Positions 12,607 to 13,104 of a stretch of 64,000 nucleotides of DNA are shown piece by piece. Positions within the stretch are counted from its first letter, which is position 1, and each line of letters begins with the position of its first letter. Location of the stretch: positions 172,240 through 236,239 of the IMG/VR virus record IMGVR_UViG_3300028840_002431. The stretch is one strand, 5' to 3'. The translations under genes and the position numbers were made by a program. The notes beneath the pieces are model-generated. The model did not search any database. It saw nothing but the letters and a program-made list of their open reading frames with translations, and had not been told where the DNA came from. The stretch is from a virus.

Positions 12607-13104
12607 ATGCCCACAGCTAAAGAAGTAGCTTTCGAGATTCATCGGGACGCGATGTACGGCGACCAGCCGTACTCAGTCCACCTGGATGAGGTTGTTACCG
12701 TGATGTCCCGTTACGGTGTCCGCGAGCACGACCTCCTGGACGCCGGTTATCTGCACGACAGCATCGAGGACACGCCGACCACGAAAGAGGACCTGGAGCG
12801 CCTCGTGGGGCCAACAGTGGCCCGGATCGTGGACGCTGTGACCGACGGCAAAGGTAAGAACCGGGAAGAGCGTAAGGAGCGTCCCTATCGTCTTATCCCC
12901 AAGGTCTATGGTGCCCTGACTGTGAAGCTGGCCGACCGCGTCGCGAACGTGGAAGCCACGATCAAGAACGGCAAAACCGGACTGTTCGAGATGTACAAGA
13001 AGGAACAACCCGAGTTCCGGCGTCGGCTTCGTGCCGCTCCTGGAAAAATAGAGTCGTCTCCGGAACGGCGGATGTGGAACCGGCTGGCCGAGCTTCTAGG
13101 CTAA
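12607..13104 (+). CDS. small alarmone hydrolase (Rel/SpoT-type HD domain, Mesh1/SAH-like)
   Basis: QPYSVHLDEV ... AGYLHDSIEDT matches the Rel/SpoT hydrolase signatures (PY..H and LHDxIED). Confidence 0.65.
   Translation: MPTAKEVAFEIHRDAMYGDQPYSVHLDEVVTVMSRYGVREHDLLDAGYLHDSIEDTPTTKEDLERLVGPTVARIVDAVTDGKGKNREERKERPYRLIPKVYGALTVKLADRVANVEATIKNGKTGLFEMYKKEQPEFRRRLRAAPGKIESSPERRMWNRLAELLG

Follow-up and report, generated by a model that had tools for sequence, protein, structure and literature searches.

Does the small HD-domain gene at positions 12607..13104 of a 64,000-nucleotide viral sequence encode an enzyme that destroys alarmones, and what would such an enzyme do for the virus that carries it? 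The sequence, here called the window, is the whole stretch of DNA that was analysed and covers positions 172,240 to 236,239 of IMG/VR record IMGVR_UViG_3300028840_002431. An initial annotation made from the letters alone had read the gene as a phage-encoded small alarmone hydrolase (SAH) of the Rel/SpoT type (RSH), lying immediately downstream of a polynucleotide kinase (Pnk) gene. Sequence comparisons and a structural model support membership of the protein in the RSH-type SAH family, as a stand-alone enzyme with an intact conserved active site.

A stand-alone RSH-type hydrolase

12607..13104, plus strand: stand-alone RSH-type HD hydrolase (SAH) of 165 amino acids; open reading frame (ORF) from the ATG at 12607 to the stop at 13104

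The proposed reading frame holds. Gene calls on 10 metagenomic contigs (ENA, JGI and Logan assemblies; up to ~416 kb long) recover the same ORF, with products that are 100% identical, and a codon-usage gene caller ranks it as a confident gene. The motifs that first drew attention to the family are present in the translation, VHLDEV at residues 24–29 and AGYLHDSIEDT at residues 46–56. The Pfam HD_4 model (PF13328), which had been suggested as a check, matches the protein at 39.3 bits against a gathering threshold (GA) of 27.2 (E 6.9e-10). PHROG 990, 'metal-dependent phosphohydrolase', also matches (E 4.8e-31), and TIGR00691 (spoT_relA) matches partially, over the hydrolase part only (E 4.4e-11). 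A single-sequence (phmmer) search of the PDB returned RSH-type hydrolases only, including Drosophila Mesh1 (3.6e-12), Rel/SpoT hydrolase domains, human MESH1, and the SAHs of P. aeruginosa, C. glutamicum and Leptospira. With 165 residues, a single HD_4 domain, and neither synthetase nor TGS/ACT domains, the protein has the architecture of an SAH.

Ninety homologs of ~125–233 residues were collected, nearly all with HD_4 as the sole Pfam domain, and 55 of them, at 28–57% identity, make up the family alignment (A1). Residues H12, H25, H50, D51, E54, D55, K107, A109, D110 and N114 are invariant among the 55, which indicates purifying selection on the catalytic site. Together they include every metal-binding and catalytic position of the RSH hydrolases (H...HD..ED...KLADRxxN): the predicted metal-binding residues H25, H50-D51 and D110 align with the equivalent residues of Mesh1 and Rel, the predicted catalytic Glu-Asp dyad E54-D55 lies in the HDxxED motif, and N114 belongs to KLADRxxN.

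Searches with this alignment gave the same answer. All 23 PDB matches of the A1 profile were RSH hydrolases, from human MESH1 (7.6e-30) and Drosophila Mesh1 (4.7e-29), both full length, down to the (p)ppApp hydrolase Aph1 (4.5e-10). An AlphaFold2 model built on A1 has ten helices and high confidence (pLDDT 95.6, pTM 0.91). Every one of its 50 best PDB matches in Foldseek is a hydrolase domain of the SAH, Mesh1, Rel or SpoT kind; TM-scores to RelH, Mesh1 and PaSAH are 0.74–0.76. No deoxynucleoside triphosphate hydrolase (dNTPase), nucleotidase of the YfbR type, HD-GYP protein or other phosphodiesterase appeared in the Pfam, TIGR, PDB sequence and profile, or Foldseek searches. All 23 PDB profile matches and the 50 best fold matches were to RSH hydrolases, and none to the dNTPase or cyclic-nucleotide phosphodiesterase subfamilies named beforehand as the competing assignment. 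The Rel/SpoT-type, stand-alone reading of the gene is therefore borne out by HD_4, the PDB searches, the fold matches and the catalytic invariance in the 55 homologs.

Relatives of the hydrolase

The closest solved relative, Mesh1/MESH1 (HDDC3; PDB 3nr1, 3nqw, 5vxa), is likewise a single-domain, all-alpha RSH hydrolase of ~170–180 residues with the same H...HD...ED...D...N catalytic set (TM 0.74–0.76). Identity to it is, however, ~26–30%, the loop before the first metal-binding His is 3 residues shorter in the window protein, and Mesh1 is eukaryotic whereas the window protein comes from a phage.

Phage enzymes of this kind have been described before. Jimmy et al. 2020 reported SAHs in many phages and prophages (PMC7229694); the stand-alone SAHs of Salmonella phages PVP-SE1 (PbcSpo) and SSU5 (PaSpo) neutralised all five of the toxSAS toxins tested, and phage SAHs were proposed as a means to bypass alarmone-mediated defence (PMC7229694). 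Iyer et al. 2021 catalogued an 'HD-alarmone PDease' in group 2/3 jumbo phages and predicted that it counters stringent-response and alarmone-based immunity (PMC7824862). The window protein falls in the same category, an HD-superfamily alarmone hydrolase of very large phage genomes, for which the paper lists a single example accession, with no analysis of subfamilies. PaSpo and PbcSpo are also stand-alone phage HD_4 hydrolases with the same predicted counter-defence logic, and hhalign shows clear remote homology to SSU5 PaSpo (probability 99.2, E 7.5e-20) and to a PVP-SE1-like protein (probability 98.3, E 2.2e-14). These validated phage SAHs are nevertheless only 23–31% identical to the window protein.

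Relatives are widespread. By tblastn, 372 cultured-phage records carry one at E<=1e-3, and a cutoff of E<=10 raises the number to 707. Among these phages are phiCbK-like Caulobacter phages, Nodularia phages, Pakpunaviruses, phiKZ-like jumbo phages, Vibrio phages and Seunaviruses. In IMG/VR, a relative is encoded on at least 461 contigs, many of them >200 kb. The labels of the phage relatives vary among 'metal-dependent phosphohydrolase', 'HD/PDEase-like', 'GTP pyrophosphokinase' and 'small alarmone hydrolase'. On many deposited phage genomes (e.g. KY555144 Ccr5, JX163858 phiCbK, ON529858 Bajun) this hydrolase-only protein is labelled 'GTP pyrophosphokinase' or '(p)ppGpp synthetase', the reverse of its expected activity; the mistake seems to have spread from bifunctional RelA/SpoT. 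Phage SAHs, those of jumbo phages included, are an already established category, and the window gene is ordinary within it, since phages, jumbo phages among them, were already known to carry such enzymes.

Base-contacting residues and the Tyr-Gly clade

Some of the base-contacting residues differ from those of Rel. In T. thermophilus Rel (TtRel), R43 and R44 stack on the guanine, and S45, N150 and T153 form hydrogen bonds with it (PMC10083569). The (p)ppApp-specific Aph1 has D24 at the R43 position, and D24R together with R119A widens its specificity; SAHMex-type enzymes have a conserved F21 (PMC10083569). Three independent alignments (phmmer, hmmsearch and MAFFT) agree in placing Y17 of the window protein at the position of TtRel R43 and MESH1 R24, and G18 at the next Arg/Lys, so that the Arg-Lys of the MESH1 'QQRRKD' sequence (R24-K25 in our count) is Tyr-Gly here. 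Y17 is kept in at least 90% of the clade, as judged from the 55-homolog alignment. The counterpart of TtRel T153 would be A117, going by motif spacing (N+3).

The resulting Q-x-Y-G motif is common to the window protein and to proteins of phiCbK (gp249), Nodularia phages and Pakpunaviruses. SSU5 PaSpo, which has 213 residues and the sequence QKRKY, and the phiKZ-like phage 201phi2-1 keep Arg-Lys; the PVP-SE1-like protein (SalP219 as a stand-in) has QKDKG, with Asp-Lys at the same position. Sequence comparison thus assigns the window gene to a separate, large and mostly phage-borne Q-x-Y-G clade of SAHs that lacks the guanine-stacking arginines. Aph1 of Bacteroides caccae (PDB 7smg; PMC10083569) resembles the window protein in its SAH fold, in the absence of Arg at the guanine-stacking position, and in being encoded by a temperate phage. 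However, its match is much weaker than that of MESH1 (4.5e-10 against 7.6e-30; TM 0.57), and the window protein appears to retain two helices that are absent from Aph1, judging from its full-length match to MESH1. Membership in the Aph1 family was rejected, as the window protein has Tyr in place of the signature Asp (Aph1 D24) and matches 7smg weakly.

An aromatic Y17 could stack on either purine, and base preference is therefore not predicted. The preferred substrate may be (p)ppGpp, (p)ppApp or 3'-pyrophosphorylated tRNA. The paper on Pakpunavirus Adele annotates a member of the clade as an SAH and calls its substrate preference unpredictable (PMC12846349).

Proposed function

The protein is probably a catalytically active, metal-dependent 3'-pyrophosphohydrolase of the RSH type, with (p)ppGpp and/or (p)ppApp as its substrates and quite possibly also tRNA bearing a 3'-pyrophosphate; its action would blunt the stringent response and toxSAS-type defences. 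The metal, the substrates and the biological role are our predictions. A metal ion (Mn2+ in characterised relatives) would be held by the His...His-Asp...Asp site of H25, H50-D51 and D110, and the E54-D55 dyad would activate a water molecule for removal of the 3'-pyrophosphate from (p)ppGpp and/or (p)ppApp. The same activity may also free tRNA CCA ends pyrophosphorylated by toxSAS enzymes, as shown for MESH1 and ATfaRel, which strip the 3'-pyrophosphate added by toxSAS from the CCA end and restore aminoacylation (Kurata et al., bioRxiv 10.1101/2021.04.30.441581). Expressed during infection, the hydrolase would keep the host out of a stringent or abortive state and undo defence by toxSAS enzymes such as CapRel, FaRel and PhRel. 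Degradation of alarmones against the stringent response or toxSAS abortive infection is the standard published role of phage SAHs (PMC7229694, PMC7824862).

Several points weigh against this function. First, residues that contact guanine in (p)ppGpp-specific hydrolases are not kept (Y17, G18 and A117 in place of TtRel R43, R44 and T153), so strict (p)ppGpp hydrolysis cannot be assumed. Second, the gene neighbours carry no alarmone-specific signal and are RNA-repair, nucleotide-metabolism or unknown genes. Third, we found no experimentally tested member of the Tyr-Gly clade. The 25 Pfam families listed for the 120 ORFs of the window include no alarmone synthetase; three weaker families (E 2e-5 to 1e-4) fall outside that list.

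The upstream kinase and the question of RNA repair

11909..12436, plus strand: kinase-only AAA_33 P-loop kinase of the polynucleotide-kinase (Pnkp / Trl1-kinase) branch, 175 amino acids, Walker A GLPGSGKS
12437..12606, plus strand: 170-nucleotide spacer and putative 5' leader of the hydrolase gene, moderately structured, without a known RNA family
12433..12461, plus strand: sigma-70-like promoter match TTGACA-17-TATCGT, 10/12 positions; a weak match, to the consensus only

Of the claim that the hydrolase gene directly follows a Pnk gene, the adjacency (across a 170-nucleotide spacer) and the family both stand, but the gene encodes the kinase domain alone. The 175-residue protein ends after this domain, with no fused 3'-phosphatase (HAD_PNKP) or other 3'-end-healing domain. 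It matches AAA_33 (2.7e-11), KTI12 (6e-6) and a PSTK-like family (9.5e-8), together with PHROG 2071 (1.2e-21) and PHROG 505, 'polynucleotide kinase' (5e-10); its direct PDB matches are weak (PSTK 0.03, T4 Pnk 0.67). Iterative jackhmmer searches join it with the T4-type Pnkp of viral contig L135 (AAA_33 plus HAD_PNKP, the latter at 4.5e-50) and with kinases of ~310 residues that have a weak match, below the Pfam threshold, to the 2H cyclic phosphodiesterase (CPDase) domain of fungal tRNA ligase. Because its homologs include T4-type Pnkp and, in cultured phages, adjoin 'RNA ligase 1' genes, 'Pnk' is a fair label. Related viral contigs carry the kinase family in two forms, a T4-type Pnkp (L135:10644-11510) and a Trl1-like kinase-CPD arrangement (L153:5963-6895 and L151:3449-4369).

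The 170-nucleotide spacer folds with a minimum free energy of -72.5 kcal/mol (z = -2.3; equal stability in 4 of 200 shuffles) and has no Rfam match, to a riboswitch or any other known RNA, at E<=1. The sigma-70-like candidate site, one found where 0.6 are expected in shuffled sequence, could give the hydrolase gene its own transcript. At its other end, the stop of the hydrolase gene overlaps by 4 nucleotides the end of a convergent 68-residue ORF (13101..13307, minus strand). The locus was also considered as part of a defence system and rejected: no PADLOC model matches the HD protein, and the match of the kinase is limited to the AAA portion of a CARF-PDDEXK-AAA model.

The neighbouring kinase invites comparison with known end-healing enzymes. 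Munir and Shuman reportedly described an HD-Pnk end-healing enzyme in Runella slithyformis. As in T4 Pnkp and HD-Pnk, the window has a polynucleotide-kinase module beside a metal-dependent phosphoesterase in a genome with an RNA ligase. Unlike HD-Pnk, which is an N-terminal HD fusion, the window has two ORFs, the kinase first and the HD protein second, with a promoter-like site between them; its HD domain is of the RSH (HD_4) type, and the pairing with a kinase is not conserved across its family. Other genes that may act on RNA ends or tRNA lie elsewhere in the window:

8015..8338, plus strand: stand-alone cREC_REC (cyclic-phosphate-processing receiver-like) protein (PF20274 1.8e-12, 48.2 bits against a GA of 27)
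52936..53562, plus strand: Rnl2-like RNA ligase candidate, 208 amino acids, motif I KLDGSN (PF09414 1.9e-5, 25.3 bits, just below the GA of 27)
30222-30782, plus strand: SpoU-family RNA 2'-O-methyltransferase (2.7e-16)
38435-38869, plus strand: PTH2-type peptidyl-tRNA hydrolase (1.5e-9), directly after a tRNA cluster
37372-38373, 52557-53887 and 57281-57355: tRNA gene arrays (ARAGORN and Rfam)

The Rnl2-like ligase candidate sits between tRNA-Met genes in a tRNA cluster, 40 kb from the hydrolase. The cREC_REC protein belongs to a group predicted to process 2',3'-cyclic phosphate or cyclic ADP-ribose and linked to RNA ligases (Iyer et al., PMC7824862). The two belong to a dispersed RNA-repair gene set of the window, which may or may not be linked to the hydrolase. 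A separate DNA_ligase_A_M match (3.8e-7) occurs among the 120 ORFs of the window, and the PTH2 and SpoU proteins add translation- and tRNA-directed functions. ARAGORN identified 10 tRNA genes (Ile x2, Glu, His, Ser, Pro x2, Met x2, Arg), three of them below the Rfam gathering score. Rfam found 8 tRNAs, adding to the ARAGORN set one 99-nucleotide tRNA-like match (37750..37848) that may contain an intron or insertion.

How regularly do such genes accompany the hydrolase in other genomes? By tblastn, only 2 of 83 related loci have a homolog of the kinase no more than 4 kb from the HD gene, on which ground a conserved two-gene kinase-HD module was rejected; by jackhmmer, 11 of 80 loci have one within 10 kb. 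Clustering of flanking ORFs produced two large groups (33 and 13 loci) that were discarded as artefacts, being antisense ORFs that overlap the HD gene itself. The commonest real neighbours are ligases of the DNA-ligase type (15 loci), the Rnl1 type (15) and the Rnl2 type (9). These ligase neighbours belong to one lineage, with a same-strand block of Rnl1, HD gene, DNA ligase and Rnl2. Ligase-bearing loci fall into 4 of the 54 HD clusters formed at 70% identity, and into 1 of the 36 formed at 50%; a family-wide association of ligase and HD gene was rejected, as 19 loci collapse to this single lineage. When Rnl1, Rnl2, RtcB and the kinase family are pooled, such a neighbour is present in 10 of the 54 clusters at the 70% level and in 6 of the 36 at the 50% level. 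Within 10-kb flanks, with lineages collapsed, RNA-repair genes occur in 5 of 20 lineages in the inner 8 kb against 4 of 20 in the outer 12 kb, a ~1.9-fold enrichment by density that is not significant.

Individual loci differ. In phiCbK, RtcB lies 2.5 kb upstream of the HD gene and NAD-salvage genes lie downstream; in Pakpunavirus Adele, genes for a DNA ligase, an RNA ligase and a calcineurin-type phosphoesterase lie no more than 2.5 kb from the HD gene; and on contig L135 the full Pnkp is 248 bp away. The neighbours in the Nodularia phage are dUTPase, thymidylate synthase and methylases, and other loci have RNR, NT5C or NUDIX genes beside the HD gene. In our reading, large phages usually have the HD gene in a region devoted broadly to nucleotide and nucleic-acid metabolism. 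Some lineages, that of the window included, may have a specific repair partnership, and the upstream kinase is a possible, unproven functional partner of the hydrolase.

Alternative functions

It is conceivable, though unlikely, that proteins of the Tyr-Gly clade are primarily RNA 3'-end repair enzymes that work with a kinase-only Pnk and phage RNA ligases to restore defence-damaged tRNAs. They would strip the 3'-pyrophosphate of the CapRel/FaRel2 type from CCA ends, and possibly also process the 3'-phosphate or cyclic-phosphate ends left by anticodon nucleases. If so, a Tyr-Gly SAH would be a modular replacement for the phosphatase domain of Pnkp.

Another reading, which we consider improbable, makes the HD protein the 3'-phosphoesterase partner of the kinase-only Pnk, a 'split Pnkp' whose main substrate would be broken RNA and not alarmones. 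It would clear 2',3'-cyclic-phosphate and 3'-phosphate ends of tRNAs cut by anticodon nucleases so that a phage RNA ligase could reseal them. The upstream kinase does lack the phosphatase or CPDase domain present in its ~290–320-residue homologs, and the window also encodes the cREC_REC protein, the Rnl2-like ligase, PTH2, the SpoU methylase and at least 10 tRNAs. The Rnl1-HD-DNA ligase-Rnl2 block of one phage lineage points the same way, as do the Pnkp of L135, the RtcB of phiCbK and the ligases and phosphoesterase of Adele near their HD genes. Kurata et al. liken the action of SAHs on tRNA to that of the 3'-phosphatase of T4 Pnk (bioRxiv 10.1101/2021.04.30.441581), and Iyer et al. noted HD-like 3'-phosphatases in a few jumbo phages (PMC7824862). 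However, kinase adjacency is rare, the ligase link is confined to 1 of 36 lineages, the pooled repair genes reach 6 of 36, and the flank control is not significant. An extra phosphatase would be needless where a full Pnkp or kinase-CPD protein is present, the best neighbours in other lineages are nucleotide-metabolism genes (RNR, NT5C, NUDIX, dUTPase, ThyX), and we found no report of an RSH hydrolase acting on 3'-monophosphate or cyclic-phosphate RNA ends.

It is very unlikely that the protein is a MESH1-like metabolic phosphatase acting on NADPH (at the 2'-phosphate) or on cofactors resembling 3'-phosphoadenosine 5'-phosphosulfate (PAPS) or PAP, and so reprogramming host redox or sulfur metabolism. 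MESH1 is the closest solved relative, its structures with NADPH and with PAPS are among the fold matches (5vxa, 9chy), Kurata et al. cite evidence for MESH1 as an NADPH phosphatase (bioRxiv 10.1101/2021.04.30.441581), the window has a sulfotransferase gene (26380..27294), and the phiCbK HD gene is followed by NAD-salvage genes. However, 13 kb separate the sulfotransferase gene from the hydrolase gene, with no sign of a conserved linkage, the Arg-Lys pair of MESH1 is not kept, and those bacterial and phage SAHs that have been tested use alarmones or 3'-pyrophosphorylated tRNA. Finally, a non-alarmone HD phosphohydrolase (dNTP triphosphohydrolase, 5'-nucleotidase or cyclic-nucleotide phosphodiesterase) or a dead HD fold, which the labels 'metal-dependent phosphohydrolase' and 'HD/PDEase-like' on many relatives and the dNTP-metabolism genes beside the HD gene in some phages might suggest, is scarcely credible, being largely refuted by the PDB profile and fold matches, and the invariant RSH-specific motifs HDxxED and KLADRxxN argue against both another subfamily and lost activity.

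Origin of the contig and other genes of the window

The phage origin of the gene is likely, though not proven from the window, which has no capsid, portal or terminase gene. A huge phage is the likely source of the ~416-kb contig because of its length, its dense small ORFs, its tRNA arrays, its many PHROG matches and its best matches to 'uncultured phage' records of 462–735 kb. The window has 54.9% G+C, with ~120 mostly small genes over 80% of the sequence, and 31 PHROG families match at E<=1e-6. The 'uncultured phage' records LR756500, LR756501 and LR756503 (462–735 kb) are among the top protein-level matches for the HD protein and an SPFH protein. Positions 9000–16900 of the window gave no nucleotide match to deposited phages; there is therefore no annotated close relative.

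The surroundings of the hydrolase gene may not be fixed. The 416,380-bp ENA contig L002 is 100% identical to the window over 2607–14285 and then passes through a mosaic junction (L002:11680-12026) into different DNA. The junction consists, in order, of the reverse complements of window positions ~297–322, 14313–14366 and 1–267. Assemblies L001, L003 and L004 are collinear with the window across this region (window 1–322 and 14285–14366). A ~14-kb segment with the SAH gene thus appears inverted or rejoined between near-identical genomes, and the junction alters the N-terminus of the gene at 13898..14368, whose product has 156 residues in the window and 179 in L002. The segment has no long inverted repeats at its flanks, and a MEGAHIT misassembly is possible.

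Further genes of the window, beyond those given above, are the following:

16457-17170, minus strand: SprT-like metalloprotease
23020-23787, plus strand: papain-like cysteine protease (Peptidase_C1/C39_2)
26380-27294, plus strand: sulfotransferase (Sulfotransfer_3; 7e-19)
31379-32629, plus strand: SPFH/Band-7 protein, 416 amino acids (PHROG 11908, 2.6e-45)
33371-33766, plus strand: staphylococcal-nuclease homolog
33766-34386, plus strand: FkbM-type methyltransferase (2.5e-11)
34670-35098, minus strand: eukaryote-style RNA recognition motif (RRM) protein, 142 amino acids (RRM_1 2.5e-25, 88.5 bits), unusual in a phage genome
38842-39576, plus strand: DUF7873 protein (7.5e-82, full length)
40032-41564 and 41566-43020, minus strand: two adjacent large genes, 510 and 484 amino acids, with a shared C-terminal region (phrog_34216, function unknown)
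47160-47495, minus strand: DnaJ J-domain protein
54409-55482, plus strand: DUF4419 protein (5e-34)

The two large adjacent genes are probably tandem paralogs. The SPFH protein has its best matches in a 462-kb uncultured huge phage (38.7% identity) and in crAss-like Bacteroides phages (~31%). The sulfotransferase is of note as MESH1 has been crystallised with PAPS; any linkage to the hydrolase would be hypothetical.

Meaning for phage alarmone hydrolases

If the hydrolase does degrade alarmones, it would be a further instance of a common means by which phages counter host responses based on alarmones and toxSAS, which would not be surprising. Its non-routine aspects are modest and limited to the Tyr-Gly clade and the kinase-only Pnk neighbour. 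The gene is useful for annotation because many of its relatives are mislabelled 'GTP pyrophosphokinase' or called only 'metal-dependent phosphohydrolase'. Beyond this, its added value is twofold: it defines a large, phage-dominated Q-x-Y-G clade without the guanine-stacking arginines, and some members of that clade adjoin RNA-repair genes.

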